Assembly: GCA_041658125.1 (NCBI GenBank)
Contig: JBBAAS010000003.1
Coordinates: 10,830-74,829 of the forward strand
Direction of reading: 5' to 3'
Length of the DNA stretch: 64,000 nt
Source: Candidatus Shapirobacteria bacterium
GTDB lineage: Bacteria; Patescibacteriota; Microgenomatia; UBA12405
In this document: in pieces, positions 14,277 through 30,786 of the stretch
How positions within the stretch are numbered: the stretch's first letter is position 1
Layout of the letters: each line of letters begins with the position of its first letter
Position numbers and translations under genes: made by a program
The notes under the pieces: generated by a model
The model's input: the letters and a program-made list of their open reading frames with translations, nothing else
Told to the model about the DNA's origin: nothing
The model's database searches: none

Positions 14277-15788
14277 TTAAAAATTCAGCTTAGTTTCGAT
14301 ATGGTTTTCAGGCAAATAAAGCTTCTGGTCAACTGACAGTTCATCAATAAACTTCAAGTTATGAGAAACGATCAACATAGCTCCGTGGTATTCCTTAAGA
14401 GACTCTAAAATCAATCTTTGTGACAGCGGATCTAGGTATGTAGTAGGTTCGTCTAGAACAAGAAAATTGAAGTTTTGGGCTAGCAATCTGGCAATTGACA
14501 ATCTAGTTTTTTCTCCCCCTGACAAACTAGCTATCTTTTGGAATACTTTGTCACCGACAAAAAGCATTCGACCCAAAAGAGCCCTAAGTTGACCCTCGGT
14601 AAGATTGCTTTCCAGCTTTTTTATCGTTGCTATTAAAGTTAGATCCGGATCTAAATCAGATAATTCTTGGCAGTAATAGCCCCAACTTAATTTATAATCA
14701 CGAACAACTTCTCCTTCGTCTGGAACTAGTTCGCCCAATATTATTTTAATAAGAGTGGATTTGCCGGCACCGTTTGGACCCAGAAGAGCGGTTTTTTGGC
14801 CTCTTTTAACGGTTAAATTAACCTGACTTAAAACTTTTTTGTGGCCGAAAGATTTACTGATATTTTTGACATAAACCGGGATTTCGCCGACGCGAGTGGG
14901 ATCGGGCAAAATGAGCTTCATTTTTTTGGCTTCGGGGGGCATAGTCGGCATATTTTCCTCGAGCTTTTCGACCCGTCTCCGAACCATCAATTTGATGCGG
15001 ATACCTTTTTTAGATTTAAAATGAGACATTTTTAATAAACCTTTTTTCATTTGTTTTAAATGTTTTTGTTCGGTTTCTATTTTTCTTTTCAACAAAGCTT
15101 CTTTTTCGGTTTTGAGTTTTAAAAAATTTTGATAATTACCGCCATAGATATCAATATTTTTAGTTTGAGGGTTAATGTAAAAAATTTTATCTAGTTTTTC
15201 ACCCAACAACTCCAAATCATGAGAAATTAGTAATAGAGTTCCTTCGAAATGACACATAAAATTAGTAACCCATTTTTTACCTTCTTCATCTAAAAAATTG
15301 GTTGGTTCATCTAAAAACAATACGTCAGCCTGACTTAAAATGGCTCTGGCTAAGGCCAGTCGGGTTTTTTGGCCACCGCTTAAAATTTGAGGTGAAATAT
15401 TTAGGCTTATATCCTTTAGTCCTAATCCGGCCAAAACCCGATTAATTTCATGGTCAGGAATGTTAGAAAAAACATTTAAATAATCAGTAATGTCTTTGGC
15501 TTTATCCATGATTAAATCGGCCTTGACTTCCTGAGGAACAAAGGCAATTTTACCTTGTACAAGAACATGACCACCATCGGCTTGTTCTAGACCGGATAAG
15601 ATTTTGAACAACGTTGTTTTACCGGAACCGTTTACTCCAACCAATCCAACCTTTTCATGATTGCTAACTGAAAAATTTACCCCAGAAAAAAGAGGCTGAT
15701 TGGTCCAGGTAAAGAATAAATCGTCAACTTTAATCATTTTGTCATATTTTAAGATAAATTTTTCACTTGGTGTAGGCCTAATTGACAT
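14277..15788 (-). CDS. ABC-F family ATPase (tandem ABC domains)
   Basis: Two Walker A sites (GVNGSGKTT, GPNGAGKST) and two signature motifs (LSGGQKTRL, LSGGEKTRL). The start is taken at the internal MSIRPTP, because the track ORF would overlap the divergent gene. Confidence 0.7.
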   Translation of the reverse strand: MSIRPTPSEKFILKYDKMIKVDDLFFTWTNQPLFSGVNFSVSNHEKVGLVGVNGSGKTTLFKILSGLEQADGGHVLVQGKIAFVPQEVKADLIMDKAKDITDYLNVFSNIPDHEINRVLAGLGLKDISLNISPQILSGGQKTRLALARAILSQADVLFLDEPTNFLDEEGKKWVTNFMCHFEGTLLLISHDLELLGEKLDKIFYINPQTKNIDIYGGNYQNFLKLKTEKEALLKRKIETEQKHLKQMKKGLLKMSHFKSKKGIRIKLMVRRRVEKLEENMPTMPPEAKKMKLILPDPTRVGEIPVYVKNISKSFGHKKVLSQVNLTVKRGQKTALLGPNGAGKSTLIKIILGELVPDEGEVVRDYKLSWGYYCQELSDLDPDLTLIATIKKLESNLTEGQLRALLGRMLFVGDKVFQKIASLSGGEKTRLSIARLLAQNFNFLVLDEPTTYLDPLSQRLILESLKEYHGAMLIVSHNLKFIDELSVDQKLYLPENHIETKLNF

Positions 15789-15889
15789 GTCGAGACAAAT
15801 TAACAGGGTATTTTGGCTAAAATATTTTAAAAAATAAGCTTCGTTTTTCAGCCTTTTATCCGTCAATAGTTGTTTACAACAAGGAGTAT

Positions 15890-17629
15890 ATGTCTTATAA
15901 TATACACATGGCAAAAGAAAGGAATCCTATGGCGAAAACCGCCGAAAACGGAGAGTCTGACTCTAGAAAATTTGTTGCCTCCATAAAGGATGTTGTTTTT
16001 TCAACTTATGATCGTGTTTTGTTTTACGATGTAAATTTTATTCTTCATCGAGGTGATACTGTGGCGGTAACCGGTCAAAGTGGTTCGGGCAAAACGGTGT
16101 TACTAAAAATATTAATGGGTTCAGAACAGCCGGATACGGGTGAAGTTAATATAGCGAAAAATACAAGAATAAGTTATGTTCCTCAGGAAATGGAGGATTT
16201 AGAAGTGAGCGAAGACATTTCTGTTAAAGAATTATTTTTTAAAGCAAGAGGCTTGGATCAAATAGAAGTTAGGTTAAGACACATTGAGGCTCAAATGTGC
16301 CGAAGTGATCTGAACAGAAACGAGATGGATAAAGTTTTGGGTGAGTATGATCGTATCCAGGACGAATTTCAGAGAAGAGGTGGTTATCTTGCAGAAACAG
16401 AAATGGATTTAATACTTGAAGGGTTGGGAGTCGATGAAAGAACTAGCGGACACATAAATCACGAAACAAAATTGTCTGAAGTAAGTAGTGGACAAAGAAC
16501 CAGATTACTTTTAGGCCAGGCATTGTTCGCTGATAGTAACCTGTTAGTTCTGGATAACCCGACTGCTCATTTGGATGTAAAAGCTGTCGGGTGGTTGGCA
16601 TCTTTTGTTAGGGATAGTAATAAAGCAATATTGATTGCCACGCAGGACACCGCCTTTGCTGAAGCTGGTTGTAATAGAATTGTTGAAATTACTGATTTCG
16701 GAAGAGTATTAACGTTTGAGGGAAATTATTCTGAATTTGCCTTAAAAAGAGATGTAATATTGGAGGCTGAAAGAAGAGCAGCAGAAACTGCAAAAGAAAA
16801 ATTAGCAAAGCTTCAAGAAACCTATAACAAATTTAAAGGGGAAGGTGTGTTCAGAAGAAGCGCCGATATGGCTCAGGTAGGCAGAGCTTTAGAGTCAAGG
16901 ATAAATCGGATGCAAGAAGACTTGGAAAATATGCCGGGAATCATACCAACATTTAGGGATAACAGAGCGAAAGAAATGGTTTTTACTTCAAGGGGAAAGG
17001 GAGGGACAATAAGCTTTGAAGGATTAGCAAAAAGTTACGACGGATATGAGGCGATTGACATTGGGGAACTGGATTTAATAGTAAAAAGAGGACAGATATT
17101 GCATATCTCTGGTGAAAACGGAAGTGGTAAAAGTACGCTTGTAAGAATGATCGCCGATAAGGCTGGCTTGGTTTCTTTTAAGCCTGATAGAGGTGAAATA
17201 AAAATAGGTGAAGATATGGTAGTGGGATACTATGCCCCTGATAGGTTGGGGATATCTAGGAAGGGATTGCTTTTTAGTGAAATCCTTGATGCTATGTTGA
17301 TAAGAAATGAGGGCGAAGCTTCGGTGATACTACAATTTTTCGGTTTTCCCCCTCAGGGATTAAGAGAAAGAAGGATAGAAACACTAAGCGGTGGAGAGAA
17401 AAAACAATTGGCGTTAGCAAAAATTATGGCTATAAGGCCGAATATTTTATTGTTGGATGAACCCACGGATGGATTAAAACAAACTATCAAAAAAAGGGTG
17501 GCTTCGGCCCTTAAGGAATTTGAAGGGGCGGCGGTAATAGTATCACACGATTCAGAATTTATTAACGATTTAAATCCTGATTTAGAGCTATCTCTCCCGG
17601 ACAATAAAGTCAAGGTCAAAAAAAATTAA
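15890..17629 (+). CDS. ABC-F family ATPase (tandem ABC domains)
   Basis: GQSGSGKT and GENGSGKST Walker A sites; VSSGQRTRL and LSGGEKKQL signatures. Alternative starts at 15908 or 15929. Confidence 0.7.
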   Translation: MSYNIHMAKERNPMAKTAENGESDSRKFVASIKDVVFSTYDRVLFYDVNFILHRGDTVAVTGQSGSGKTVLLKILMGSEQPDTGEVNIAKNTRISYVPQEMEDLEVSEDISVKELFFKARGLDQIEVRLRHIEAQMCRSDLNRNEMDKVLGEYDRIQDEFQRRGGYLAETEMDLILEGLGVDERTSGHINHETKLSEVSSGQRTRLLLGQALFADSNLLVLDNPTAHLDVKAVGWLASFVRDSNKAILIATQDTAFAEAGCNRIVEITDFGRVLTFEGNYSEFALKRDVILEAERRAAETAKEKLAKLQETYNKFKGEGVFRRSADMAQVGRALESRINRMQEDLENMPGIIPTFRDNRAKEMVFTSRGKGGTISFEGLAKSYDGYEAIDIGELDLIVKRGQILHISGENGSGKSTLVRMIADKAGLVSFKPDRGEIKIGEDMVVGYYAPDRLGISRKGLLFSEILDAMLIRNEGEASVILQFFGFPPQGLRERRIETLSGGEKKQLALAKIMAIRPNILLLDEPTDGLKQTIKKRVASALKEFEGAAVIVSHDSEFINDLNPDLELSLPDNKVKVKKN

Positions 17630-18744
17630 GTTAGGTGCCATTCTGTAATCAACTTTCGAAGTACAAAATTTTGTCCCTTGTTTCGAAATGCTGGTACGCT
17701 ATTTATGACGTTGTTTGGGGTTGATATGGAATTAGAAAATTTTTTCTGTAATTTATTATAAAGTGAACTGTCTTGAAGGACTTGAGAGGAAAGTTTTGAT
17801 GTAATAGCGATAGATTCTTTTTCTGTCATCTGGCTTAGCTTCCAGTCAAAAGGAAAATAATCTTCCCAGGAGAAGATATTATGAGCAGAGGCTTTGACTA
17901 TAGCAGTTTTAGACAGAGCCCATTGGCTTAAATTATGAGGAAGAAATATATTGAGATCTTTTTTCAAGTGAATACTTATAAACGTGACTCCCATACCGGC
18001 AGGCGTATAAATCTTGTGGCATTGTTTGATTTTGAGAATAAATTCATCAAAAGGAAAAGAGCCACAAGTAATTTTTTTGGTTATAAATCGATTAATATAG
18101 TCAGTAGAAGCTTTCCCGCCGGCAATAATGATTTCCTGCTCGGGATTAAAATGTGTATCGTTAATTAATCTGATTAGAAGATCCAAGTATTTTTCGGGAA
18201 TACCCGAGACCAGAGGGTTTTGGGTTCCGCCTAAATGGAAAACAATTGAGTTGTTTAAATTAACTTTTTTAACAAATTTAAAATCATCTGTAATTGGCGG
18301 AATATCAAAGTGATTTTTTCCGGGATATTTGACTTTGTTCAGTCCATTATAGAAATAATATTTTGCCAAGCTATATTCAGCCGGACGGTTTTGACGCCAA
18401 AACCATCCTAACGGATCAATTAACGCAGAGGAAGTATCTATATTGTAAGCTGCTTGGATCGCAAAACGGTTAAGACAACTAATGATCAAGGGATGATAAG
18501 TAAAACGTTGAAGAAAGAGTGTAATTTCTTCAATACTTCTTTGGTTGATTTCGTAAAAATTAAACTTATCTAGCTGATGTTGATTAAGAATTTCATTACA
18601 TAAACCACTGCTGGCAAAAATTAATTGGACGTTTTTAAGTGAGTCGTTAAATTTTTTGGCAATAGGAATTAGGGTTCCGGTTGGTCCATAACCAAAAGGA
18701 TTGGAAAAAAAAATTACAGTTTTTGGGTGTTGATAATTTATCAT
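17626..18744 (-). CDS. hypothetical protein, possibly a GT-B-fold glycosyltransferase-like protein
   Basis: 372 aa with weak Rossmann-like segments (IIIAGGKAS...TPAGMGV). Assignment is tentative and based on cluster context. Confidence 0.3.
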   Translation of the reverse strand: MINYQHPKTVIFFSNPFGYGPTGTLIPIAKKFNDSLKNVQLIFASSGLCNEILNQHQLDKFNFYEINQRSIEEITLFLQRFTYHPLIISCLNRFAIQAAYNIDTSSALIDPLGWFWRQNRPAEYSLAKYYFYNGLNKVKYPGKNHFDIPPITDDFKFVKKVNLNNSIVFHLGGTQNPLVSGIPEKYLDLLIRLINDTHFNPEQEIIIAGGKASTDYINRFITKKITCGSFPFDEFILKIKQCHKIYTPAGMGVTFISIHLKKDLNIFLPHNLSQWALSKTAIVKASAHNIFSWEDYFPFDWKLSQMTEKESIAITSKLSSQVLQDSSLYNKLQKKFSNSISTPNNVINSVPAFRNKGQNFVLRKLITEWHLT

Positions 18745-19658
18745 GCTATTTGAATTGTGGAATCGAATGGACTATTTGTAACTAATTTTATTAATTTTTT
18801 TAACGGGATAGTTTCAGTATTATTTTTACTTTTACCCATAACAAGGCCGTTTCTTCCCAAAACAATGGGGGTATAGAGGGTTTGAGGGTATTTGGCTTTG
18901 GAATTAAAAAAATCAATGAGTTTCTGACGAACGATAAAATCACCTTCGGAGTAGTGATCAGCGCCTGTGATGCAAAGATCAATATTGTAAATTTCTAAGC
19001 GGGGAATGGCCAGGGGTTTGTGGTAAAACCAGTATTCAAAGTCTTGGTATTTGCCTGTTGATTCTTGATAACAATTTTCGCATTTATGAATAATGTTGTT
19101 TCCCCTCACAAAAGTTGATCCCTTTGCTAAGTGACACTTTGGACAAATCGCCATCGCATATTGAACAGGTTGTTCCAATACGACTTTATCGGTGTATTTT
19201 CTGAAAACATCAGCTAAAAGTTCGGGGTGCTCTATTGTCTTAAGAAGACATCGTTTCATTAAAGGGTGGTTTTTCATCGAAGAATTTCGGACAGCTTTAA
19301 TAGTTATTTTAGGATAATATTTTTTTAATTGATTAACTCTCTTGAGAATAACAGGCTCCCAATAGTCAACAACTGTTTTTGAAGGATCTTCAACGCTGTA
19401 AGTAAACTGAAAAGTAGTTTTTTGTGGGTAAATATTAAAAATATAGGTTTTAGGATCAGGCCCGTCTAGCTTGTCTTGCTCCCAGTCATTGATAAAAATA
19501 TAAAAATTAAATTGTATTTGTTTTCCCAGTTTTTCCATCTGACGGCAGAGAAGAAGAGGATAAACGACAAAGGGCATCATGTTGCCTGCGTGAAAACCGT
19601 AAGGCCGAATACCTAAATAGATATTTTCTTTACCGGTTAAGTTTTGAGCGGCAGACAA
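18741..19658 (-). CDS. class I aminoacyl-tRNA-synthetase-like ligase (HxGN and KMSKS-like motifs plus a Cys4 ribbon)
   Basis: IYLGIRPYGFHAGN (HIGH-like) near the N-terminus, VMGKSKNN (KMSKS-like) near the C-terminus, and CPKCH...CENC between them. Embedded in a sugar-modification cluster. Confidence 0.4.
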   Translation of the reverse strand: MSAAQNLTGKENIYLGIRPYGFHAGNMMPFVVYPLLLCRQMEKLGKQIQFNFYIFINDWEQDKLDGPDPKTYIFNIYPQKTTFQFTYSVEDPSKTVVDYWEPVILKRVNQLKKYYPKITIKAVRNSSMKNHPLMKRCLLKTIEHPELLADVFRKYTDKVVLEQPVQYAMAICPKCHLAKGSTFVRGNNIIHKCENCYQESTGKYQDFEYWFYHKPLAIPRLEIYNIDLCITGADHYSEGDFIVRQKLIDFFNSKAKYPQTLYTPIVLGRNGLVMGKSKNNTETIPLKKLIKLVTNSPFDSTIQIA

Positions 19659-19684
19659 TAGTCCGTTGTAATAGAGATAAGGTT

Positions 19685-20611
19685 TTATATTTTTTTTATA
19701 AAAAAATTAAATTTAGATAACATATATGAATTAATCGGCTGAGGCACATGGGGAGGATTATTGTCTAAAATATCAGAAAAATAAGTACAAGCATCGGAAA
19801 GACAAGCAAAACATATCCATCGATAAAGGGTTGTATCTAGAGGATACTTAACGGAAGATCGAGAATTATAGGACTGGTAAAAGGTATCGAAAACATCAGC
19901 CCATGGCCCTTCAGCTCCATCCGGGTATGACCATTCGGCTAAAGCTAATCCCAAATCTTTTAAAAGAAAACCCGAACAAGACCAATCAAAATCTAAAATA
20001 GCCTCAATTCCTTCTTGATTAAAAAAAACGTTGTTGGGACGATAGTCGTTATGAATGATACCCTGAGGACTGGATTGTGATCTGGCCCAGTAAAGATATT
20101 CTTTTACCTTAGCAATAAATTCACGTCCATCTTTATAAGAAGAAAGAAATAATTTCTCATGAGATAAAATTCTTTCTAGTTCGGTATAGATAGTCCTGGC
20201 TCGACTATAAGTAATGTGTAATCGTTGGCCTTTTTGATGGAGATCAGCAAAAGCTTGAGCTACTAATGCAACTTTTTTTAGGTCTGGTTTACAATCTTTG
20301 TTAACTTCAAGGTGATGGCCAGAGACAAAGGGGAAAAGCGTGCCTATTTGCTCGTTATCCGTAATAAAATAAGGCCGATTATCCTGGGTGTAGACCGGAG
20401 GTATTACTTTGGCACCAAGTTGATAAAGTTGTGAAAGAACTTCTACTTCAAAATCGATATTATTTATTTGACGACGGCTTAAGCGTAATACTAGGGTTTT
20501 TGAATCAGTGATGATCTTAAAAACTTCGTTATCCGGCCCTTTCCTAATTAACTCGATTTGCGTTGGGGAGGTAAGATTATAGCGTTGCTGGAGTATTTGA
20601 TCGAGAGTCAT
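19685..20611 (-). CDS. APH/choline-kinase-family phosphotransferase
   Basis: IIHNDYRPNNVFF (Brenner HxDxxxxN) and ILDFDWS (DFD/DxD) motifs. Confidence 0.65.
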   Translation of the reverse strand: MTLDQILQQRYNLTSPTQIELIRKGPDNEVFKIITDSKTLVLRLSRRQINNIDFEVEVLSQLYQLGAKVIPPVYTQDNRPYFITDNEQIGTLFPFVSGHHLEVNKDCKPDLKKVALVAQAFADLHQKGQRLHITYSRARTIYTELERILSHEKLFLSSYKDGREFIAKVKEYLYWARSQSSPQGIIHNDYRPNNVFFNQEGIEAILDFDWSCSGFLLKDLGLALAEWSYPDGAEGPWADVFDTFYQSYNSRSSVKYPLDTTLYRWICFACLSDACTYFSDILDNNPPHVPQPINSYMLSKFNFFIKKI

Positions 20612-21803
20612 TTAGACGTAGAGAAACCAGTAATTTTTTGGTTAAACTGTTCCAGGAAGTGATAGTTTTTGACGGAGTAGAGGTTATTGTTTTAGTATAT
20701 ATTTTTAAGTGTTGTTGGGCGATATATTTCCAGTCAAAGTTTTTAATGTTGGCGGAGGCGTTGGCAATAATTTTTTTCCTTATATCTGGTTGATTTATGG
20801 CTAGTTCTAATAGGCCGGTTAATTCGTTAATATTTTGACTCTCAAAAATGAATCCTGTTTTTTTGTCTTTAATATATTCAGGAATTCCGCCGACATTACT
20901 TCCGATACTCAAACATGAGGCCGCTTGAGCTTCTAAATTAACGACTCCACCACCTTCTGCTCTTGATGGACAAACATGAGCAATTGCTCCTTTCATGTAT
21001 TCGAACACCTTGTCGGATGTTAGTTCGCCTAAAAATTGAACCCGGTTCAATAGGTTTAATTTCTTGGTTAAATTTATTAAATTATCCTTACCTTCCCCGG
21101 AACCAGCGATAATAAGTCTGAGTGGTGGATATTTGACAGATATTTTTGAAAAGGCTTGAATTAAGATATCAACGCCCTTGTCTGGGGTTAATCGCCTGGC
21201 GATGAAAATATAGGGGAAAAGGGATTTATGTTTCGGTGATTTTTTTATACGGTTTAGATCAACACCGGCAAAAATAAGGTTGATATGATTTAGCGTGGGA
21301 ATGGCCTTTCGAGCTAGGCATATAAGATCATTGGAAAAGGCAATGTGGCAATCCGCCTGGGTTACCGCTTTGGGAACAGTAGTTAAGCCATCTTGCCAAA
21401 GTTTTATGGTTTCGGGATCGTCAGAATTGGGAAGATCGCCGCCAGCAAAGCTAACAATAAAAGGAACTTGCCATAGACGACTGAGAAATAGTCCAATTAG
21501 GGGCATTGGTCTTCTAATACCAATAAGATGAATAATGTTTCCTGAAATGGTTTGCTTGTATTTATTAATAATCTTAAAAACATTAATAAAATCACCTAAT
21601 TGTTGGGGACGTGAGATACGTAAAATTGAAACACCGTCGACTGTTTCAAATTCGGGAAGATCGAAGGGAAACTTTTTAGTAAGAACAGCCGTTTTAATAC
21701 CCATTTTTTGGTAAAATCTTGCAAGATTGGCAATGCAAGTTTCCACTCCTCCGACATTGGGTTTGTAGACAGAAGCCATGAACAAAACTTTTTTAATAAC
21801 CAC
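20577..21803 (-). CDS. GT4-family glycosyltransferase
   Basis: N-terminal KPNVGGVETCIANLARF and C-terminal EGGGVVNLEAQAASCLSIGSNVGGIPEYI match the GT4 EX7E region. Confidence 0.75.
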   Translation of the reverse strand: MVIKKVLFMASVYKPNVGGVETCIANLARFYQKMGIKTAVLTKKFPFDLPEFETVDGVSILRISRPQQLGDFINVFKIINKYKQTISGNIIHLIGIRRPMPLIGLFLSRLWQVPFIVSFAGGDLPNSDDPETIKLWQDGLTTVPKAVTQADCHIAFSNDLICLARKAIPTLNHINLIFAGVDLNRIKKSPKHKSLFPYIFIARRLTPDKGVDILIQAFSKISVKYPPLRLIIAGSGEGKDNLINLTKKLNLLNRVQFLGELTSDKVFEYMKGAIAHVCPSRAEGGGVVNLEAQAASCLSIGSNVGGIPEYIKDKKTGFIFESQNINELTGLLELAINQPDIRKKIIANASANIKNFDWKYIAQQHLKIYTKTITSTPSKTITSWNSLTKKLLVSLRLNDSRSNTPATL

Positions 21804-22207
21804 TACTCACAAAATAAACTGTTAATAAGGTGGCAAGCTTCCTCTAAACTAGACAAACGAACATGAGAGTGGTAGTTTAGCCAGTAGTCGTTAAGGTGAG
21901 CATTACCAAAGATAATAATAATTTTTTCAAGCTGATAAGCATAAAAAACTTCCATTGCCGTACCGATCATGCTGGCGTTTGGTAAGGTGTCGTTGACCAG
22001 AAGAATACTAGCCCGACGAATGTCATCCTTGTCTCGAATTACGGCTCCCTTTGGATCAGGAAAAGTTTCTTTTTTTTCCCTACCCCGATAAGCATGCAGT
22101 ACTCTAAAATGAACCTCAAGAAGTTTTTTTGCCTTTTCCCTCCAGGCAATACCTTCAGCTCGGGAAATTCCTCTCATGGGACCGCTAAGAAAAACTATTC
22201 TTTTCAT
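21803..22207 (-). CDS. nucleoside 2-deoxyribosyltransferase-like protein
   Basis: MKRIVFLSGPMRG and the overall size resemble the NDT/YtoQ family; weak. Confidence 0.4.
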   Translation of the reverse strand: MKRIVFLSGPMRGISRAEGIAWREKAKKLLEVHFRVLHAYRGREKKETFPDPKGAVIRDKDDIRRASILLVNDTLPNASMIGTAMEVFYAYQLEKIIIIFGNAHLNDYWLNYHSHVRLSSLEEACHLINSLFCE

Positions 22208-23160
22208 ATTTTATAGAAAGATGCCCTTTCATCTCTCAATTTTTGATTGGGTAAAATAATTAAAAATGGTTTTTTAGAGATACTATTGGCTATTTCTTCT
22301 GAAGTATAAAGTAATTCTTTAACTTTTTCATTTTCCCTGGAACCAGTAAAAACTATGTCTATTTTTTTTGAAACACCACTTTTTTTAATAAGTTTTTTAG
22401 CCATTTGATAGATATTAAATTCGTGCATATTTAGCACAAATAGTTCTTGGCCATTCATAATACTGGCTGCTAATAACACGGAATTTACGGCTTTGGGAAT
22501 AGTAGTAAAAAAACGTTTCATTCGCTTATCAGTAACGGTCACGGGTTCGTTGTTTTTTATTTGTTCACGCCACAAAGGAATGACCGAACCACAAGAGTCC
22601 AAAACGTTTCCGAAACGAATTACTGAAAAAATTGTGTTAGAAGAGAGGTCCAAGGTATGAGGACCAATAAAAAGTCTTTCCATAACCAGCTTAGTCATAC
22701 CCATAAAAGTGGTCGGGTTAACAGCTTTATCGCTGGAAATGGCAATAACCTTGTTGATTTTATATTTAACTGCTAAGTCAAAAATGTTTTGGGAACCAAG
22801 GATATTGGTTTTAATTGCTTCCTGCGGGTTGTGTTCACAAACAGGAACGTGTTTAAGTCCAGCAGTGTGAAAAATAATATTGATACCCTCCATGACCGAT
22901 TCGAGGCGATCTTTATCCCTGATATCCCCGATACAATAATCTATAGCTGTAGAAGTTTTAAGGTGTTTTAGTCGACAATCTAATAAGAAATGCCGGTATT
23001 CGCTTCTGGCGTAGACTACAATTTTTTTAGGTTGATATTTTGTAAGCTGAACAACGATTTCAGAGCCAATAGATCCGGTCCCTCCGGTTACTAAAATATT
23101 CTTACCTTTAAAATTTTTCGAAAGTAAGGCAGCTAGGCTAGTTTCTTGATCGTATGACAT
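22204..23160 (-). CDS. NAD-dependent UDP-sugar 4,6-dehydratase (PseB/CapD/FlaA1-like)
   Basis: NILVTGGTGSIGSEIVVQL and a CapD-like core with YxxxK. Confidence 0.7.
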   Translation of the reverse strand: MSYDQETSLAALLSKNFKGKNILVTGGTGSIGSEIVVQLTKYQPKKIVVYARSEYRHFLLDCRLKHLKTSTAIDYCIGDIRDKDRLESVMEGINIIFHTAGLKHVPVCEHNPQEAIKTNILGSQNIFDLAVKYKINKVIAISSDKAVNPTTFMGMTKLVMERLFIGPHTLDLSSNTIFSVIRFGNVLDSCGSVIPLWREQIKNNEPVTVTDKRMKRFFTTIPKAVNSVLLAASIMNGQELFVLNMHEFNIYQMAKKLIKKSGVSKKIDIVFTGSRENEKVKELLYTSEEIANSISKKPFLIILPNQKLRDERASFYKI

Positions 23161-24233
23161 ATAAAACTAATTTGGTCTTCAGTAAGACCTATATAAAAGG
23201 GAAGAGCTAGGGTTTGTGATGAAATCTTTTCAGCAATAGGAAAATCGCCCGGTTTATATCCGAACATTTTTCTCATAAATGGTTGCAGATGAATTACTGG
23301 TAAATATGGCCGAGTGTTAATTCCCTTATTGGCTAAAAGTCGGATTAATTTATCTCTTTGACCATTGGTGATGCGGACGACATAAACAAACCAGGAATTA
23401 GTACGGTTTTTTCCTGTTTTCGGTGTAATAATTCGAGGGTGTCCTTTGAGTTCTTTTGTATATTGTTGAGCGATTTTGTTTTTCTGTCTGATCATCCAGT
23501 TTATTTTTGATAATTGAGTGATGCCTAAAGAGGCGCTTAAATCGTCCATCCGATAGTTATAACCGAGCGATTGATGAAGCATAAATTGATCGTCGAGAAT
23601 ACGGCCTTGATTTTTAAGACTCTGACAAGTCTGCCAAACAGATTTTGAGGAAGTGACAATCATTCCGCCCTCACCGGTAGTCATTTGCTTGTTCGGATAA
23701 AAGGCAAAAACGCCAATATCTCCAAAAGTGCCTGCCATTTTCCCCTGATATGTAGCTCCAACACTTTCACAAGCATCCTCAATTATTTTGAACTTATGTT
23801 TCCGGGCAATTTTTATTATTGGATCGTAATCTGGTGTTTGGCCAAAAATGTCTACAGTTAATAGTCCTTTCGTTTTAGGGGAAATGGCTTGAGATATTAA
23901 AGCCGGATCGATATTAAAGGTATTTTCTTCAATGTCAACAAAAACCGGTTTAAGGTCCTCAAATAGGAGACAATTACTAGAGGCGATAAAAGAGAATGGA
24001 GTGGTAATAACTTCGTCTCCTGCTTTGAAATCAAGTGCCCTCACTGCAAGATGTAATCCGGCAGTACCGTTACAGACAGTGCAGGCATATTTTGCCCCAA
24101 TAAATTGTGAAAAAGTTTTTTCAAAAAGTTGGTTTTTAGGACCACAAGCTAATTTTCCTGATTCGAGTGTTTGAACAACGCCATCAATGTCTTTTTGGTC
24201 AATATATGGTTTAGCCAAGGGAAGGCAGAGCAT
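23133..24233 (-). CDS. DegT/DnrJ/EryC1/StrS-family PLP-dependent sugar aminotransferase (PseC-like)
   Basis: Family-typical N-terminus (YIDQKDIDGVVQTLESGKL...CNGTAGLHLA) and C-terminal conservation. Confidence 0.8.
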   Translation of the reverse strand: MLCLPLAKPYIDQKDIDGVVQTLESGKLACGPKNQLFEKTFSQFIGAKYACTVCNGTAGLHLAVRALDFKAGDEVITTPFSFIASSNCLLFEDLKPVFVDIEENTFNIDPALISQAISPKTKGLLTVDIFGQTPDYDPIIKIARKHKFKIIEDACESVGATYQGKMAGTFGDIGVFAFYPNKQMTTGEGGMIVTSSKSVWQTCQSLKNQGRILDDQFMLHQSLGYNYRMDDLSASLGITQLSKINWMIRQKNKIAQQYTKELKGHPRIITPKTGKNRTNSWFVYVVRITNGQRDKLIRLLANKGINTRPYLPVIHLQPFMRKMFGYKPGDFPIAEKISSQTLALPFYIGLTEDQISFICHTIKKLA

Positions 24234-24909
24234 GATTATATGAAACTATTAACTGAAACGATTCGGCATATTTAAATCCTGATTGGATCCCCCGGTATTT
24301 TGCCAAAGATTTAACTCCTTGAGCCGAACGAGGATGGGGATAAGGTCTTATCTCGGTGCGACAAAGATTAAAAGCTTTAACCTTTTTCTCTATATAAGAA
24401 GAGATGTCGAAATAAGTATTCGGGTTAAAAGGATTATCCCTTGACCATTCGGTGGAAGACAAAACTTCGTATGAATAAACTTGATCAAGAAACGGTTTCC
24501 CCGGGCGTGTGACTACTTTTGTTGATTGATAAACCAGGATATGATCTAAATTGACATCAGTCGATGAATGAGTATAGATAATCGACGGTTTAATTTGATT
24601 AATTACATTCTCTAATTTTCTATTGATATCAATGTGGGCTATTGTGTCAAGCTTCATATCAGGAAAATCTAGGCGAATAAACTCTTTAATTCCTAAAAAT
24701 TTCTGAACTCTTAAAGTTTGTTGGTCTTTGGCCTGAGCTTTTTTTATATCTCCTTGATATTGAGAGCTCGAACCATCAGTGACTACACAAACATAAACGT
24801 TATCTTTTCTTGAGGTGTAGTATTGAATGACTCCACCGCAACCTAACACCTCATCGTCAGGATGAGCCGCTAAGATAAGTATGTTTTGACTATTCGTTGA
24901 GTATGTCAC
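24211..24909 (-). CDS. LmbE/PIG-L family N-deacetylase
   Basis: ILILAAHPDDEVLGCGG is the PIG-L signature. Confidence 0.7.
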   Translation of the reverse strand: MTYSTNSQNILILAAHPDDEVLGCGGVIQYYTSRKDNVYVCVVTDGSSSQYQGDIKKAQAKDQQTLRVQKFLGIKEFIRLDFPDMKLDTIAHIDINRKLENVINQIKPSIIYTHSSTDVNLDHILVYQSTKVVTRPGKPFLDQVYSYEVLSSTEWSRDNPFNPNTYFDISSYIEKKVKAFNLCRTEIRPYPHPRSAQGVKSLAKYRGIQSGFKYAESFQLIVSYNHALPSLG

Positions 24910-25837
24910 CGGTTTTGAATTGTTTTATAACCTGAACTAGTTTATTTTGAGAATTTATGATTTTCTTTAAACAAATTATCCGGCTCCCTGTAAGAATCCA
25001 TAGGCCTTTGTTTGTCACTTTGGCTATTTGGCCCGGAAAACCAGAAAATTGTGGAGCATTTTTTAGTATTTCTGAATCTTTGACGTAATAGGTTTGGCTA
25101 TTGTAAGAAAAGTTAGCCAAAGGATATATGTCGGTGACAGCTCTAATTAAATTTTGTATAGACAGGGCCGGATAATTAAAATTAATACGACTATGTTTTG
25201 GACGTCGGACAAGCAGATAAGTAGCTTGCGAGTTGTTTTGTTTTGTTGCTTTGGCTCTATTGTTAACAATGTCATCAAAATTATTGAGCAGTAATTTGGA
25301 AGCTAGTAACGTCATTTTTTTATAAAAACTTGAGGCATTGTCGGAATCTAAAATTTTAAATTTTTCTTGGTCAATTATCGGCCCGGAATCACATCCGGCA
25401 TCAAGATAAAAAAGCGTAACGCCGCCATATTTTTCTTGATTAATGAAGTGCCAGGCAATAGGAGCTCTGCCTCGGTTTTTGGGGAGAAGTGCTGGATGCA
25501 AACCAACACATCCATGTTTGGCAGTTTTTATTAAGGGTAAGGATAATAATTGAGACCAACCGTTTACTATAATTATATGAGGGCGGTATTTTTGGAGTAT
25601 TGGGAGAAGAACGTTAATTTTTTCAATATAATACAAGGATATATGGGATTTCTTGGCCATGGAAGAAAAGTCTTGATAGTCTGAGACATTGGCCGCTTTA
25701 CTAAAAGGAAGTGTCAGAATAGTGTCAATTTCTTTACCATGAGCAATAAGATCCTTAAGACAAATAAAACCATCTTTTGTCATTGACAAATAAATATTTT
25801 TGTCACTAAAAAAAGACCTTAAGATATCTTCATCCAT
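24890..25837 (-). CDS. formyltransferase (Fmt/ArnA-like sugar N-formyltransferase)
   Basis: IIVNGWSQLL...GCVGLHPALLPKNRGRAPIAWHFIN is the formyl-transferase catalytic motif. Confidence 0.65.
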   Translation of the reverse strand: MDEDILRSFFSDKNIYLSMTKDGFICLKDLIAHGKEIDTILTLPFSKAANVSDYQDFSSMAKKSHISLYYIEKINVLLPILQKYRPHIIIVNGWSQLLSLPLIKTAKHGCVGLHPALLPKNRGRAPIAWHFINQEKYGGVTLFYLDAGCDSGPIIDQEKFKILDSDNASSFYKKMTLLASKLLLNNFDDIVNNRAKATKQNNSQATYLLVRRPKHSRINFNYPALSIQNLIRAVTDIYPLANFSYNSQTYYVKDSEILKNAPQFSGFPGQIAKVTNKGLWILTGSRIICLKKIINSQNKLVQVIKQFKTGDILNE

Positions 25838-25918
25838 ACTCCGAGGTGATTATAGAATATATCACACAAAAAGGCAATAAACGATTATAGGTTGGTTAAA
25901 AAAATACATAACTGTTAT

Positions 25919-26509
25919 TTATTTAAAACCGCTATTTTGAAAAATTTTTTTCAAACTAGGAAGATAATACTGCTTGTATAAATCGTCCTTTTGCTGATGA
26001 GTTAAATTTGAAATTAAAGCAGGATATCCCTTGGGAATCATAAGGTAGTTGAAAAAATTTGTAATTGAAGGATTTGGTGTTAAAAGATCAGTGTTGAAGG
26101 TTACAGGTACAATTATTTTACAAATAAAATATTTATCCTTACAGGCAATACAATAATATTTAATAATTTTTCCTGTATTTATCTTATTTTTTATTATGTA
26201 TTGTCGCCAATAGTCGATTGGGCTGTTGATGTCAAAGTTCTTATTACGAATAACAGAACTGGGTTGTAAGTCTATGGAAAGGTGATCAAAGTAAACACCA
26301 GAGTCTTCAGAAATAATCGCTTTTTTAATTATGGAGTAATAGCACTTTGCTTTGATTAGACAATTTTCTTTTTCATTCTTTCCGTTTTCGTCGGGGGGCT
26401 TAATGTTGAACGAAACAATAGTTTTTATCTTTAGAGAAGGATTTAAGAGGCGGATTTGATAAGAAATATTTTTATATTTATCGATATTTGTGGTAGCTAT
26501 ATAAATCAT
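25919..26509 (-). CDS. Ham1/RdgB-like non-canonical NTP pyrophosphatase (divergent)
   Basis: MIYIATTNIDKY...ENCLIKAKCYYSIIKKAIISEDSGVYFDHL parallels the ITPase N-terminal and central motifs. Confidence 0.35.
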   Translation of the reverse strand: MIYIATTNIDKYKNISYQIRLLNPSLKIKTIVSFNIKPPDENGKNEKENCLIKAKCYYSIIKKAIISEDSGVYFDHLSIDLQPSSVIRNKNFDINSPIDYWRQYIIKNKINTGKIIKYYCIACKDKYFICKIIVPVTFNTDLLTPNPSITNFFNYLMIPKGYPALISNLTHQQKDDLYKQYYLPSLKKIFQNSGFK

Positions 26510-26535
26510 ATTGTAAGATATAATACTACGTACTT

Positions 26536-27267
26536 ATGTTGAATTCACAGGCTATATATGACGAGTTTGCTCCGTTTTATAGAAAATATTCGAAAGAAAA
26601 GAAAGAATATATCGACACTATCGATAAAATTATTAGCGACTATTGCGTAAAAAAAACTATCATAAAAATGATAGATCTGGGGTGTGGAGACGGGGTTAGG
26701 GGAAAAAGCTTGGCTCAAAAAATTAAACCTGAGGTGATTAAAATGGTTGACAACAGTGAAAAAATGATTGAACGGGCAAAAAAATTATGCGGAGTAAAAA
26801 TTGCTGAGGGTGATTTTTCTGAGAAAAGATGGCGGGAAAAAGATAGGTACGAAGTGGTGATCTGTCTGTGGAATGTATTAGGACATATTTCTTCATATAA
26901 AAAAAGGCTTTGGGCTTTAAAAAACATTCGATCAGTTTTAGCCGAAGAAGGAGTGGCGTTTGTGGATCTAAGTAATAGGTATAACGTAAAATATTATGGG
27001 TGGAGTAAGGTGTGGAAAAATATAAAAGAAGATTTAAAAAGACCTAGCTATAAGAACGGCAATTTCAAATATTTGATTGATGTTGGTTTAAAAAAAATAC
27101 CTTCAGTATGTCATTTTTTTAATCCATGGGAAATGGAAAAAATGATAAGAGAAGCAGGTCTAAAAATCAAAAAAAGATATTTTATCAATTATGAAAACGG
27201 TAAAATTGAAAAATATTTTTGGTCTGGCCATATATTCTCTATATTAGAAAAACAGGCAAAAGTATAA
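26536..27267 (+). CDS. class I SAM-dependent methyltransferase
   Basis: MIDLGCGDGVRG (motif I) followed by an acidic residue after beta-2. Confidence 0.65.
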   Translation: MLNSQAIYDEFAPFYRKYSKEKKEYIDTIDKIISDYCVKKTIIKMIDLGCGDGVRGKSLAQKIKPEVIKMVDNSEKMIERAKKLCGVKIAEGDFSEKRWREKDRYEVVICLWNVLGHISSYKKRLWALKNIRSVLAEEGVAFVDLSNRYNVKYYGWSKVWKNIKEDLKRPSYKNGNFKYLIDVGLKKIPSVCHFFNPWEMEKMIREAGLKIKKRYFINYENGKIEKYFWSGHIFSILEKQAKV

Positions 27268-27306
27268 TCTGAAGTAACAAAAAACAGAGTGATTATTTTG
27301 AAATTT

Positions 27307-28413
27307 CTATAAACCTGATCTAACTATTGTTTCTAATTCTGAAATAGTTAGATCTTTATCTTGCATTGAAAATGAGTTTCTCACTCTCGTGGAAATATCT
27401 TTAGCCTTTTTGGAGGAGATTTCTAATCCAAAATATTTTCTTGAAATTTCTATAAGTGCATCAGCGCTAAATAATTCTCCTATTACATAATTAGGAATAA
27501 AACCAAAGCTTTTTGGTTTTACTGTTTGAAATTTATTATTTTCTATCACTCTCTTAATGTGGCTTGCCGCAACATGTCCAAACGCTGATGGGCTGAGAGG
27601 ATCTCTGTTAAAGGACGCTTTAAGGGGAAAGATTAAAGATAAAAGATCCTTGTAGAAGTTAATCCGATACCTCTTTTTTGTATCCTTCTCTTCCGAGACA
27701 GACACAACTGACAGAACATCTCCATACGATAGTATCCCATTCCTTTCTCCCATCCCGGACACAGATACTGCAAATAAAATGTCCCTATGCGTTTTTTTTG
27801 CTAATTTGTAAACTGTATAAAAATTCGCTGCTGCTAGTCCTTGGTCGTTATGAAAATGAAATTCGATAGGAATTTTTTTCATGATTGAATTGTGAATGTG
27901 TTGAAAAAAAATGCCCACAATTTCAGGTGTTGCGCAACCATTCGAATCAGCAAAACAGATATGGCTGACTACTTTATGTTTACAAATTTTCTTACATACT
28001 CTACAAATAATATCCTTATCTATTTGAAAGGAATTTTCTATGCTAAGTCTTAACTTAATGTTATTTTTTTGAGCCCAGTTGATTATTTTTAAAGCTTGCC
28101 TCATTATGATTTGTTCATTATTGCCGATTAAAGAGGTACTTACGTTTTTTACGCCTATTTTTTGCAGGAGTGTCAAATCCTTGTCGTTTATTCTAGAGTA
28201 AGTAAAAATTTTTAAATTCGTCTTTAATTTAACAACTTTTTGATATTCGTTGAGAAAATTTGTAGAAATGTATGGATGCATAATTTCCATATATTCGACC
28301 CCCATTTTGTCTATGATTTGGACGTATCGTCTTGCTTTGCCAAGAAGCATTCTGTTCGAAGAACTTTGTTTCCCTTCCCTAAAGGTTGAATCGATTAGGT
28401 GAATATATTTCAT
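27307..28413 (-). CDS. HMGL-like (DRE-TIM) metallolyase, homocitrate/isopropylmalate-synthase-like
   Basis: IDSTFREGKQ (DTTLRDGEQ-like) and HFHNDQGLAAAN (HxHNDxGxAxAN). Confidence 0.55.
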   Translation of the reverse strand: MKYIHLIDSTFREGKQSSSNRMLLGKARRYVQIIDKMGVEYMEIMHPYISTNFLNEYQKVVKLKTNLKIFTYSRINDKDLTLLQKIGVKNVSTSLIGNNEQIIMRQALKIINWAQKNNIKLRLSIENSFQIDKDIICRVCKKICKHKVVSHICFADSNGCATPEIVGIFFQHIHNSIMKKIPIEFHFHNDQGLAAANFYTVYKLAKKTHRDILFAVSVSGMGERNGILSYGDVLSVVSVSEEKDTKKRYRINFYKDLLSLIFPLKASFNRDPLSPSAFGHVAASHIKRVIENNKFQTVKPKSFGFIPNYVIGELFSADALIEISRKYFGLEISSKKAKDISTRVRNSFSMQDKDLTISELETIVRSGL

Positions 28414-28467
28414 AAATATCGGATACTTGTTTCAAGTATATCAATATGCTCTGCTCCGGTAAATAGG

Positions 28468-28531
28468 AATGGGCATGACTTTTGTCCGTATAAACAATAA
28501 CGTTTAGTTATAACTACAGGTTTTAGAACTA
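28468..28531 (+). repeat. family-2 cassette-boundary repeat R0 (degenerate; ends GGTTTTAGAACT)
   Basis: ...gtttagttataactacaggttttagaact shares its terminal module with the repeats at 29.9-34.5 kb. Confidence 0.4.
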
Positions 28532-28569
28532 GCTCATGCTAAAAAAATATTTAATCTATAATCACAACA

Positions 28570-29007
28570 ATGGGTAATCCTCTTCAGGTAATTTCAGTAA
28601 TATTAGTCATTAGGTGCCAAGGTAAATTTTTGTTGGTGCAAAGATCGGAAAAAGATGATGTTTTCCCGGGATATTGGCAGAATATGGGCGGCAAAATTGA
28701 AATTGGTGAAACTGTAGAAAATGCAATTGCCCGAGAAATGGAAGAGGAAGTAGGGTTAAAACTAGATAAAACGCCGATATTTCTACACAGTTATTCATGG
28801 AAAAAGGATAATGATTCGCCAACTAAATTAGGATTAATTTTTTTAGTTGAGCTAAGCGGCAAAACGAAAGATCAAAAAGTGAGATTAAGTGATGAATTAG
28901 AAAGATACGGGTGGTATTCAATTGAGGAGGCAAAAGAAATAAAAACCATAGGGCCTGATAGTCCTACAGGGACACTTGGACAATTGAATAAAACACTTCA
29001 AGTTTAG
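28570..29007 (+). CDS. NUDIX hydrolase
   Basis: Nudix box GGKIEIGETVENAIAREMEEEVGL. Confidence 0.75.
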   Translation: MGNPLQVISVILVIRCQGKFLLVQRSEKDDVFPGYWQNMGGKIEIGETVENAIAREMEEEVGLKLDKTPIFLHSYSWKKDNDSPTKLGLIFLVELSGKTKDQKVRLSDELERYGWYSIEEAKEIKTIGPDSPTGTLGQLNKTLQV

Positions 29008-29057: not shown

Positions 29058-29876
29058 TTATTTTTGTCGATCTGGTTGTCTGGAAAAACGGCCTGGTAAG
29101 CCTCTGCCAATTGTCTGTGAACGGGTGTTAATATCTGGTCGGTGGTTATAGTCTGGCAATATTTCGTTTGGAACTCCAAATCTTACTCGATCTTTATTGA
29201 CCATAATCTCTTCAGGTGTTTTCGGTGGCTGAAGTAGAGTAAAAGCGTAGCTCCAACTACAGAGATAGTCTCTTACTATTGGATAAAATCCATGACCTCC
29301 GAGATTTGCCGGTATTGTTGCAGTTTCCGCAAAGGCATTTACATATCTGGCATAGGCTAAAAGAGCAATTCTGGTAGGATCTGATATCACCCAATTCTTT
29401 GACTTTTGTTGAGAAGTAAGAGAGGTATAACCAATCGAACAATAAACATTTTCCATATGTTTTTCTAATTCAGCTTCATAAGTTTTGTTCACCCTATCTC
29501 GACCTAATCTTCGTTTAGGATCAGTTGCGAGGTAAAGTTTCTCTTTTTCGATAAGTTCACCAATCGGAGAAAGCATTTTTTGAATCCAAGAAGTGGTTAC
29601 CTCCCAATCCACTGCTTCTGCCGGTAAATTTTTAGCTCGGACTACTCTACTTATTTGGTCTCTTGTTACAGACTGTAATGAGGTTGTGAGAGCACTAATA
29701 ATCGGACTTGGGTCTTGATACAAAATTCTGCTAGCCTGATTTCTACTAAGTTTTCTTAACACAATAAATTGTTCAAAAAAACCTTTACCGGCAACTTCTC
29801 CTCTTTTGTCTATTTGATGAATTTCACTATTGTAATCTAACTGCAAACTTAAGCCTTCGCCTTTGTCTTGAGCCAT
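29058..29876 (-). CDS. hypothetical protein
   Basis: 272 aa ORF; no family recognised. Confidence 0.45.
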   Translation of the reverse strand: MAQDKGEGLSLQLDYNSEIHQIDKRGEVAGKGFFEQFIVLRKLSRNQASRILYQDPSPIISALTTSLQSVTRDQISRVVRAKNLPAEAVDWEVTTSWIQKMLSPIGELIEKEKLYLATDPKRRLGRDRVNKTYEAELEKHMENVYCSIGYTSLTSQQKSKNWVISDPTRIALLAYARYVNAFAETATIPANLGGHGFYPIVRDYLCSWSYAFTLLQPPKTPEEIMVNKDRVRFGVPNEILPDYNHRPDINTRSQTIGRGLPGRFSRQPDRQK

Positions 29877-29910
29877 AAACTCATAATAACATACCTCCTC
29901 CCAAGCTTAG

Positions 29911-29980
29911 CCCACTTCGTGCCTGCCCTGAGTTTATCAAAAGGGGAACGCTCCCCCAAATTGGATAGGTTTTAGAACTT
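29911..29980 (+). repeat. family-2 repeat R1
   Basis: GCCTGCCCTGAGTTTATCAAAAGGGGAACGCTCCCCCAAATTGGATAGGTTTTAGAACT. Confidence 0.7.
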
Positions 29981-30068
29981 TCAATATAACTCACAATTAA
30001 AATATGGGTATTTAGTGATATACTTTGATACTCTAGGTAAAAATTTTGGTTTTACTTATAAATAAACT

Positions 30069-30719: not shown

Positions 30720-30786
30720 CAAATCACTGCTACTTAATCATAGTATATAAACATATATTGCGTATATATAGGATATATTTGAGATG

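Follow-up and report, generated by a model that had tools for sequence, protein, structure and literature searches.

What does a bacterium of the candidate phyla radiation (CPR) make with a compact gene cluster that joins sugar-modifying enzymes to a nucleoside-handling protein, a truncated relative of lysyl-tRNA synthetase and a pair of ABC-F ATPases? The question is raised by positions 17626-29007 of a 64,000-nucleotide stretch of contig JBBAAS010000003.1 of a Candidatus Shapirobacteria bacterium (assembly GCA_041658125.1), hereafter called the window. The stretch also matches contig JBAZQC010000011.1 of assembly GCA_041645395.1, with proteins that NCBI lists under 'Candidatus Shapirobacteria bacterium'. 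CPR bacteria, or Patescibacteria, are organisms with minimal genomes to which very little secondary metabolism is generally ascribed, and their effects on hosts are largely obscure. An earlier note, made from the DNA letters alone, had read the region as a single pathway devoted to a decorated amino sugar, and had left open whether this would be a nonulosonic, bacillosamine-like or nucleoside-linked sugar and whether it would serve a cell-surface glycan or a small molecule. The gene content and the conserved linkage described below agree with a dedicated pathway. We propose that the cluster makes a soluble, ribosome-targeting aminoacylated amino-hexopyranosyl nucleoside of the blasticidin S/mildiomycin/gougerotin/amicetin class, with self-protection by ABC-F proteins, a reading to which we assign a probability of about one half; the narrower statement that the genes form a small-molecule nucleoside-sugar pathway is probably correct.

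The interval holds 13 intact, closely spaced open reading frames (ORFs) where eleven had been counted, and the description of the genes as tightly packed and mostly co-directional was accurate. Ten consecutive minus-strand genes run from 26509 to 17626, overlapping or separated by a few bases, in the order Ham1-like, formyltransferase, LmbE, DegT, PseB-like, nucleoside 2-deoxyribosyltransferase-like (NDT-like; the window protein is called NDTl), GT4 glycosyltransferase, aminoglycoside phosphotransferase (APH)-family kinase, aminoacyl-tRNA synthetase-like (aaRS-like; aaRSl in the window) and a 372-residue protein, U372; beyond 26509 follow a methyltransferase gene on the plus strand, an HMGL-like gene on the minus strand and a NUDIX gene on the plus strand. 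Annotation with Pfam and NCBIfam hidden Markov models bore out the domains listed in the earlier note, from which the U372 gene and the flanking ABC-F genes were missing. The two ABC-F ATPase genes (14277-17629) belong to the same unit. No hydrophobic segment was found in the 13 cluster proteins or in either ABC-F protein, all of which are predicted to be soluble, as would be expected of a small-molecule pathway in the cytosol and not of glycan assembly at a membrane.

The same genes recur together in other species. A scan of 185,579 species genomes, one genome per species, returned 26 loci, and four more were obtained by exact look-up; the non-redundant set comprises 27 loci, mostly from CPR, and all ORFs of these loci (numbered here with the prefix L) were searched with the window proteins. 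Besides the window, 26 loci show the genes in synteny, a degree of clustering far greater than chance would give, and the pattern set beforehand as the alternative, homologues of ordinary lipopolysaccharide genes scattered without conserved clustering, is not what was found. The carriers are metagenome-assembled genomes (MAGs) of Shapiro-, Beckwith-, Sacchari-, Nomura- and Staskawiczbacteria and of Paceibacterota; several MAG labels (Gammaproteobacteria, Rickettsiales, Bdellovibrionales, 'archaeon') were assigned by automated pipelines and are possibly mistaken. Seven proteins form the conserved block, with a gene order that varies between loci. Counted over the 26 loci other than the window, and with identity given as the median to the window protein, the aaRS-like protein was found in 26 loci (45%), U372 in 25 (29%), DegT in 23 (40%), the NDT-like protein in 21 (60%, the highest of the cluster proteins), the methyltransferase in 19 (35%), GT4 in 18 (40%) and the APH kinase in 16 (37%).

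The fixed elements of these loci are an NDT-like protein, U372, an aaRS-like protein, DegT, a kinase and an ABC-F protein, and around them three variants can be told apart. Variant A (the window, L012 and L015) has in addition the PseB-like dehydratase, LmbE and the formyltransferase; since these occur in three of 27 loci, we regard them as accessory. Variant B, found in most bins labelled Saccharibacteria and Paceibacteria, consists of the seven genes plus ABC-F and nothing more. Variant C (L007-L009 and L011) is without GT4 and the methyltransferase and carries instead a radical S-adenosylmethionine (SAM) enzyme, a second DegT-like protein, a FemAB-like GNAT protein and a different APH kinase. 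Genes for HMGL-like, Ham1-like, IMPase-like and histidine-phosphatase proteins are present in some loci only. In L030 (6882-8741; Pfam-scanned) DegT and the SAM-dependent methyltransferase are fused into one protein of 619 residues, and the same arrangement is seen in L029 (6891-8747), a fusion that ties methylation to the amination step. Locus L031 (3937-10963), from a MAG whose 'archaeon' label may be wrong, holds DegT, a short-chain dehydrogenase/reductase (SDR)-family epimerase/dehydratase, a U372 homologue, an NDT-like protein, a radical SAM/SPASM protein and an aaRS-like protein; no ABC-F gene lies near this cluster, and archaea are not known to have ABC-F proteins. L031 also encodes a fusion of Peptidase_S51 and NUDIX domains.

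The nucleoside-handling side of the proposal begins with NDTl. The earlier call of an NDT-like protein for this 134-residue product held, as its AlphaFold2 model (pLDDT 93.7) has the NDT fold: the top Foldseek matches are NDTs, MilB, BcmB and DNPH1 (probability 1.00, TM-score about 0.7), with the highest identity, 20-21%, to MilB. With a profile of the family, the best sequence match in the PDB was the CMP N-glycosidase BcmB (E 0.012), to which NDTl aligns over an N-terminal FLxxPxxG motif, an Asp and the GTxxE nucleophile motif with the catalytic Glu, all invariant in the NDTl family. On the strength of the model and these motifs, NDTl is proposed to be a relative of the MilB/BcmB-like nucleotide N-glycosidases, putatively of the CMP type, that would free the base.

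A partner for this reaction is suggested by U372. In 29 of 30 aligned members of the U372 family, TIGR04467, the model for cytosylglucuronate synthase (BlsD/MilC), was the dominant match (best E 8.5e-19), and the fold is a GT1-type GT-B, nearest to GT1 enzymes that act on small molecules; EarP ranks far lower. A sequence search of the PDB with U372 gave no match. Judged by these profile scores, U372 is a distant relative of cytosylglucuronate synthase and not an equivalog, and we propose that it is a putative N-glycosyltransferase from base to nucleotide diphosphate (NDP)-sugar. A further likeness comes from two variant C loci. The radical SAM enzymes of L009 and L011 have TIGR04466, the model for the cytosylglucuronate decarboxylase BlsE, as their best match over the full length (191 and 168 bits), the next-best radical SAM model being MoaA at about 90 bits, and both loci also carry two DegT genes. 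Taken with NDTl, U372 and DegT, which is BlsH/MilD-like, this BlsE-like enzyme means that four enzymes of the blasticidin/mildiomycin nucleoside core have distant counterparts in the cluster family.

The aaRS-like protein is the proposed amino-acid ligase of the block. The 305 residues of aaRSl end about 25 residues past a KMSKS-like motif, and no C-terminal anticodon-binding domain is present; a full-length class I lysyl-tRNA synthetase (LysRS) has about 520 residues. Aligned by hhalign with a class I LysRS-like protein of canonical length (535 residues), aaRSl covered residues 33-301 of that protein (probability 97.9%, E 4e-13), with FHAGN of aaRSl in register with HFGN, MGKSKNN with KMSSSKGN, and the ribbon of four Cys residues likewise matched. 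In the family alignment FHxGN, MGKSKGN and the four-Cys ribbon are invariant, and PF01921 was matched by 22 of the 22 members tested. Searches yielded more than 200 homologues of 315-340 residues, nearly all from CPR metagenome bins, and a profile search of 1.84 billion representatives delimited a discrete family (114 representatives at 50% identity) that is confined to this cluster context. Kinship with the leucyl-transferases BlsK/MilH, which we considered, found no support: the profile search gave the family itself and a few truncated LysRS-like proteins, and no named natural-product enzyme. A PDB sequence search with aaRSl, as a single sequence and as a profile, gave no match either. By analogy with MshC, we infer a putative ATP-dependent amino-acid ligase acting on an acceptor other than tRNA, and the amine of a sugar-nucleoside is proposed as this acceptor. 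A remote second group of truncated class I LysRS-like proteins of about 330 residues was also seen (L033, 3092-4102; L034, 7645-8643); their genes lie beside ribosomal protein genes and outside sugar clusters, on contigs whose gene content looks archaeal.

The ABC-F genes complete the unit. Against NF000355 ('ribosomal protection-like ABC-F', cutoff 380), ABC-F 'a' of the window scored 380.3 bits and the ABC-F proteins of L018 and L025 scored 392.6 and 381, with ABC-F 'b' below the cutoff at 274.6 bits. Among solved relatives of ABC-F 'a' the antibiotic resistance (ARE) factor PoxtA came first (261 bits), ahead of YheS (209), Uup (206) and EttA (191), and VmlR was also behind. Orthologues of ABC-F 'b' (388-584 bits) flank the cluster in L007, L009, L010 and L014. 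Within 1.8 kb of the core, 21 of the 27 loci have a full-length ABC-F gene, 17 of them within 120 bp, on either side of the cluster or inside it depending on the locus; L008 has a truncated ABC-F gene at the contig end, and of the other five loci, three are truncated on the flank expected to carry ABC-F. This linkage points to the ribosome. A precedent is Ard1, an ABC-F protein encoded in the cluster for the nucleoside antibiotic A201A, whose protection of the producer is narrow and directed at nucleoside antibiotics binding the peptidyl-transferase centre (PMC10201436). By analogy, the ABC-F proteins, perhaps together with the kinase, are proposed to protect the producer ribosome, and they are predicted to confer resistance.

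The sugar enzymes of the window can be placed by family, and none of them reaches an NCBIfam equivalog cutoff. The PseB and PseC steps named in the earlier note hold at the level of family relatives and fail at the equivalog level, with 257.7 bits for the PseB-like protein against the TIGR03589 cutoff of 407.75 and 298.3 bits for DegT against the TIGR03588 cutoff of 423.5; by these scores the sugar enzymes are family members and not PseB/PseC orthologues. Clear counterparts of the PseB-like protein occur only in L012 and L015 (272 and 294 bits), with weak SDR matches of 32-44 bits in L026/L028. LmbE, whose best NCBIfam match was BshB1 (57.8 bits, cutoff 182.5), and the formyltransferase, whose best matches were of ArnA type and below cutoffs, are likewise found in L012 and L015. 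The NCBIfam matches of GT4 are all far below cutoffs (BshA 80 bits against 273.7, MshA 75.5 against 462.5), and GT4, absent from the radical SAM variants, is proposed to carry out a second glycosyl transfer. For the methyltransferase we propose N-methylation of the amino sugar. The best solved relatives of the APH kinase are the type II homoserine kinase 2ppq (1.3e-9) and an aminoglycoside phosphotransferase; the L009/L011 variants have an APH kinase of a second type, and the proposed role is phosphorylation of the product or an intermediate for self-protection, or that of a sugar kinase.

The less constant members are also of recognizable families. The Ham1-like protein aligns at TxNxxK and EDSG with the Methanocaldococcus jannaschii pyrophosphatase 1b78, its N-terminal half alone being matched, and is syntenic in L003, L007-L009 and L012; it is proposed to be a pyrophosphatase that turns a nucleoside triphosphate (NTP) into the monophosphate (NMP) and so feeds the N-glycosidase, or else to detoxify analogue nucleotides. 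The HMGL-like protein has homocitrate synthase 3ivs as its best PDB match (1.2e-34) and NCBIfam matches that are all below cutoffs; it adjoins the cluster in L005/L020, L012, L023 and L030. The NUDIX protein gave NudI/MutT-like matches below cutoffs, and a NUDIX gene lies nearby elsewhere only in L003. The coordinates of all features are collected in the following table.

Genes of the proposed unit in the window, with the evidence for each assignment
Feature	Coordinates	Strand	Evidence or remark
ABC-F ATPase 'a' (ARE-like)	14277..15914	-	two ABC domains and ABC_tran_Xtn; proposed ribosome protection/self-resistance
ABC-F ATPase 'b'	15890..17629	+	4-bp overlap with the end of the U372 gene
U372, GT-B (GT1-type) glycosyltransferase, 372 aa	17626..18744	-	distant relative of BlsD/MilC; no Pfam match
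aaRSl, truncated class I LysRS-like, catalytic core only	18741..19658	-	PF01921, weak match
APH-family kinase	19685..20611	-	PF01636, 88 bits
GT4 glycosyltransferase	20577..21803	-	PF00534, 133 bits
NDTl, NDT fold, MilB/BcmB/DNPH1-like, 134 aa	21803..22207	-	AlphaFold2 model and Foldseek; itself without Pfam match
PseB/CapD-like short NDP-HexNAc 4,6-dehydratase; accessory, variant A only	22204..23160	-	PF02719, 313.8 bits
DegT/PseC-like pyridoxal-phosphate sugar aminotransferase; core	23133..24233	-	PF01041, 385 bits
LmbE/PIG-L family N-deacetylase; accessory, variant A	24211..24909	-	PF02585, 92 bits
N-formyltransferase with Fmt/ArnA-type C-terminal domain; accessory, variant A	24890..25837	-	PF00551 and PF02911
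Divergent Ham1/ITPase-like protein	25919..26509	-	PF01725, 33.7 bits, residues 2-78 only
SAM-dependent methyltransferase	26536..27267	+	Methyltransf_25/23/12
HMGL-like (DRE-TIM) homocitrate/isopropylmalate-synthase-like C-C bond enzyme; accessory	27307..28413	-	PF00682, 109 bits
NUDIX hydrolase; peripheral, membership uncertain	28570..29007	+	PF00293, 76.5 bits

From these parts a route can be drawn; its enzyme families are as shown, and we infer which substrates it uses and in what sequence. The Ham1-like protein, the NUDIX protein or both would trim an NTP to the NMP, and NDTl would cleave the N-glycosidic bond of this nucleotide and free the base, as MilB/BlsM do with CMP. In the window variant, the PseB-like dehydratase and DegT would convert UDP-HexNAc to a UDP-4-amino-4,6-dideoxy-hexosamine, and LmbE (by de-N-acetylation), the formyltransferase and the methyltransferase would then rework its amines. 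U372 would then couple the free base to the NDP-sugar to give a hexopyranosyl nucleoside, to which GT4 would add a second sugar, and aaRSl would activate an amino acid with ATP and join it as an amide to the sugar amine. Phosphorylation of the product or an intermediate by the APH kinase may serve self-protection or yield a pro-drug, and the ABC-F proteins would clear the compound from the producer ribosome. Protection of this kind implies that the product would bind the peptidyl-transferase region of the large subunit.

How well do other products account for the same genes? A nonulosonic (pseudaminic or legionaminic) or bacillosamine-like surface glycan, as entertained in the earlier note, would draw on the PseB- and PseC-like family members for a 4-amino-4,6-dideoxy sugar and would have to cast U372 as a PseG-like hydrolase, the formyltransferase in place of PseH and the HMGL-like protein as an aldolase in place of PseI. 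Both Pse matches are well below the equivalog cutoffs, and U372 matches cytosylglucuronate synthase in nearly all aligned members and small-molecule GT1 enzymes in fold. The cognate NeuB/PseI synthase (PF03102) or cytidylyltransferase (PseF) that had been suggested is not encoded among the ORFs of 14277-34326, the cluster holds no PseH, polyprenyl-phosphate transferase, flippase, polymerase or membrane protein, and neither PF03102 nor a cytidylyltransferase occurs in the ORFs of related loci that were Pfam-scanned or had precomputed Pfam calls. The distribution of the genes also runs the wrong way, with PseB, LmbE and the formyltransferase in three of 27 loci and HMGL in about five, whereas NDTl, aaRSl, U372 and ABC-F are constant, and the N-glycosidase, the aaRS-like ligase and ABC-F would be left without a role. 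We therefore consider a surface glycan quite improbable, and of the options in the earlier note a nucleoside-linked sugar or small molecule is the sole one that fits, given the MilB/BcmB-like NDTl, the cytosylglucuronate-synthase-like U372 and the BlsE-like enzyme in sister clusters. A little more credible, and still unlikely, is an aminoacyl-glycoside resembling mycothiol or bacillithiol, which would act as a low-molecular-weight thiol, compatible solute or redox buffer; here GT4 would work like MshA/BshA on a hydroxy-acid, the acceptor being made by the HMGL-like enzyme, or on inositol phosphate, LmbE or DegT would provide the amine and aaRSl would act like MshC. BshA and MshA are indeed among the best GT4 matches and BshB1 is the best LmbE match, MshC, too, is a class I aaRS paralogue that has no anticodon domain, and the IMPase-family genes in the clusters of L003 and L013 recall the MshA2 step. 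Yet the matches to MshA, BshA and BshB1 are far below cutoffs, the ligase is LysRS-like and not cysteinyl-tRNA synthetase (CysRS)-like, LmbE is confined to three loci, and the NDT-fold N-glycosidase, the cytosylglucuronate-synthase-like glycosyltransferase, the BlsE-like radical SAM enzyme and the ABC-F linkage stay unexplained.

The ABC-F linkage would also be accounted for if the cluster modified the translation machinery itself (tRNA, rRNA or elongation factor P) with an aminoacylated sugar, with aaRSl acting like GluQRS/EpmA, U372 like EarP and ABC-F as a ribosomal partner. We give this as small a chance as the mycothiol-like product, because EarP falls far below small-molecule GT1 enzymes in the ranking for U372, the N-glycosidase, kinase, methyltransferase, second glycosyltransferase and BlsE-like enzyme suit the assembly of a small molecule, the distribution is patchy, unlike that of a core translation function, and no efp, tRNA or other target gene is linked in the loci examined. 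Finally, CPR bacteria have compact genomes and rely on salvage, and Ham1 and NUDIX proteins are common housekeeping families, so that salvage and house-cleaning genes (NDT-like, Ham1, NUDIX) might merely have become neighbours of sugar genes by chance, with no single product. This is very hard to reconcile with a set whose linkage has survived rearrangement and gene fusion in 27 loci from several CPR classes, in which the supposed salvage protein NDTl is the most conserved member and the aaRSl family is found in this context alone.

Several points weigh against a blasticidin-like, ribosome-targeting nucleoside. The product, the substrate, the target and the base that NDTl would free are all putative. 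All likenesses to the blasticidin enzymes are distant and below equivalog cutoffs: all scores of the U372 family are far below the 300-bit cutoff of TIGR04467, with 18.5 bits for the window protein, and the BlsE-like enzymes of L009 and L011 are far below the TIGR04466 cutoff of 400. The window variant itself is without a BlsE-like enzyme, there being no radical SAM gene in 14277-34326. No sequence link from aaRSl to a known natural-product ligase emerged among 1.84 billion representatives. ABC-F proteins also serve as housekeeping translation factors, the solved relatives nearest to ABC-F 'b' are YbiT and EttA, and the identity of the ABC-F proteins between loci is low (24-32%). The common seven-gene variant has no enzyme to make the keto group for DegT, so that genes at other places in the genome would have to supply it, and no exporter is visible in the window.

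GC content is 0.350 in the cluster and 0.357 at 29-42 kb, against 0.427 at 42-64 kb and 0.392 at 1-14 kb, and the low-GC block of 14000-42000 may be an acquired island that comprises the cluster and the hypothetical genes following it. Together with the patchy distribution (26 loci in 185,579 species genomes), this block fits an accessory, exchangeable cluster. Carriage by phages found no support, as no relative was found in viral contigs, and a role in anti-phage defence fared no better: PADLOC gave no match for NDTl, aaRSl, U372, GT4, Ham1 or HMGL and generic ATPase, methyltransferase and NUDIX matches only. The cassette array that had been described as abutting the cluster does so, starting with the ORFs from 29058; the first three (29058-31542; 272, 216 and 221 residues) have no Pfam match and no homologue in the related loci, and beyond them lie an SDR gene (32030-32800) and a Fic-domain gene (33448-34326).

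A promoter-like site, TTGCCT-17-TATAAT, lies on the minus strand at 25849-25877, inside the 81-bp intergenic space that immediately precedes the formyltransferase start, and may mark the start of a nine-gene operon; in the promoter and terminator scan as a whole, counts were not above the expectation from shuffled sequence. Elsewhere in the window there is a lone bacterial 16S rRNA gene (6321-7797), no 23S or 5S rRNA gene being detected in the 64 kb, as well as a tmRNA gene and neighbouring genes for a protein resembling type IV secretion system pilins and a DUF5657 protein. A tRNA-Ile gene with the anticodon UAU, which is unusual in bacteria, stands beside two tRNA genes with CAU anticodons (62665-62989) and may be relevant to AUA decoding in this lineage.

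Set against known systems, the cluster shares, through distant similarities that are all below equivalog cutoffs, with those for blasticidin S, mildiomycin and arginomycin in Streptomyces an NDT-fold N-glycosidase (BlsM/MilB), a cytosylglucuronate-synthase-like GT1 enzyme (BlsD/MilC) and a DegT aminotransferase (BlsH/MilD), whose pathway roles have been described (PMC3715490, PMC11784345). A BlsE/MilG-like radical SAM enzyme is common to the sister variants only, and a methyltransferase and an amino acid on the sugar amine are alike in outline. The window differs in using a PseB-type 4,6-dehydratase route without a BlsE-like enzyme, in the addition of GT4, APH and ABC-F, and in its host, a CPR bacterium and not an actinomycete. 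The ligases differ as well, since the window has a truncated class I LysRS-like protein, while amide formation in blasticidin S is the work of the ATP-grasp ligase BlsI, and BlsK/MilH are tRNA-dependent.

In amicetin-type clusters, an NDT-like hydrolase frees cytosine, a 4,6-dehydratase and DegT supply a 4-amino-4,6-dideoxyhexose that is then N-methylated, there are two glycosyl transfers, an amino acid is amide-linked and the product binds the peptidyl-transferase centre. This scheme, compared at the level of pathway outline, is shared with the pathway proposed for the window; the window differs by having no p-aminobenzoate (PABA)/CoA-ligase or deoxygenation genes and by another type of ligase. 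From puromycin, a DegT-type aminotransferase, NUDIX, an IMPase-type phosphatase, methyltransferases and amino-acid ligation recur. The placing of an ABC-F gene within a nucleoside-antibiotic cluster is shared with A201A (Ard1, PMC10201436). In A201A and puromycin, in contrast, the ribose of ATP is aminated and the natural N-glycosidic bond is kept, whereas the N-glycosidase and the cytosylglucuronate-synthase-like glycosyltransferase here imply that the nucleoside would be rebuilt on a hexose. MshC and GluQRS have in common with aaRSl the class I Rossmann core, the ATP motifs and the lack of an anticodon-binding domain, and they transfer an activated amino acid to a non-canonical acceptor, as is proposed for aaRSl; the parent enzyme would be class I LysRS and not CysRS (MshC) or glutamyl-tRNA synthetase (GluQRS).

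In the literature searched, the coverage of which is incomplete, we found no account of such a cluster in CPR bacteria, no link between CPR bacteria and nucleoside antibiotics or ABC-F-linked clusters, and no natural-product pathway with a class I LysRS core as amide ligase. What is new in comparison with known hexopyranosyl peptidyl-nucleoside clusters is the type of ligase, the accessory chemistry and the lineage. In its widest form, our proposal is that a new family of ribosome-targeting antibiotics, of the aminoacyl hexopyranosyl-nucleoside kind, is produced by ultra-small, episymbiotic CPR bacteria and possibly by a DPANN-like archaeon for use against hosts or competitors, with an amide ligase that has a LysRS core and with dedicated ABC-F protection, which we put forward as a tentative and rather doubtful idea. 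If true, CPR bacteria would gain a chemical weapon or a means of host manipulation together with self-protection, and the blasticidin/amicetin class would extend beyond actinomycetes. An aaRS core acting on a sugar amine would be a new enzymatic solution to amide formation, and the ABC-F proteins linked to these clusters would form a new clade.

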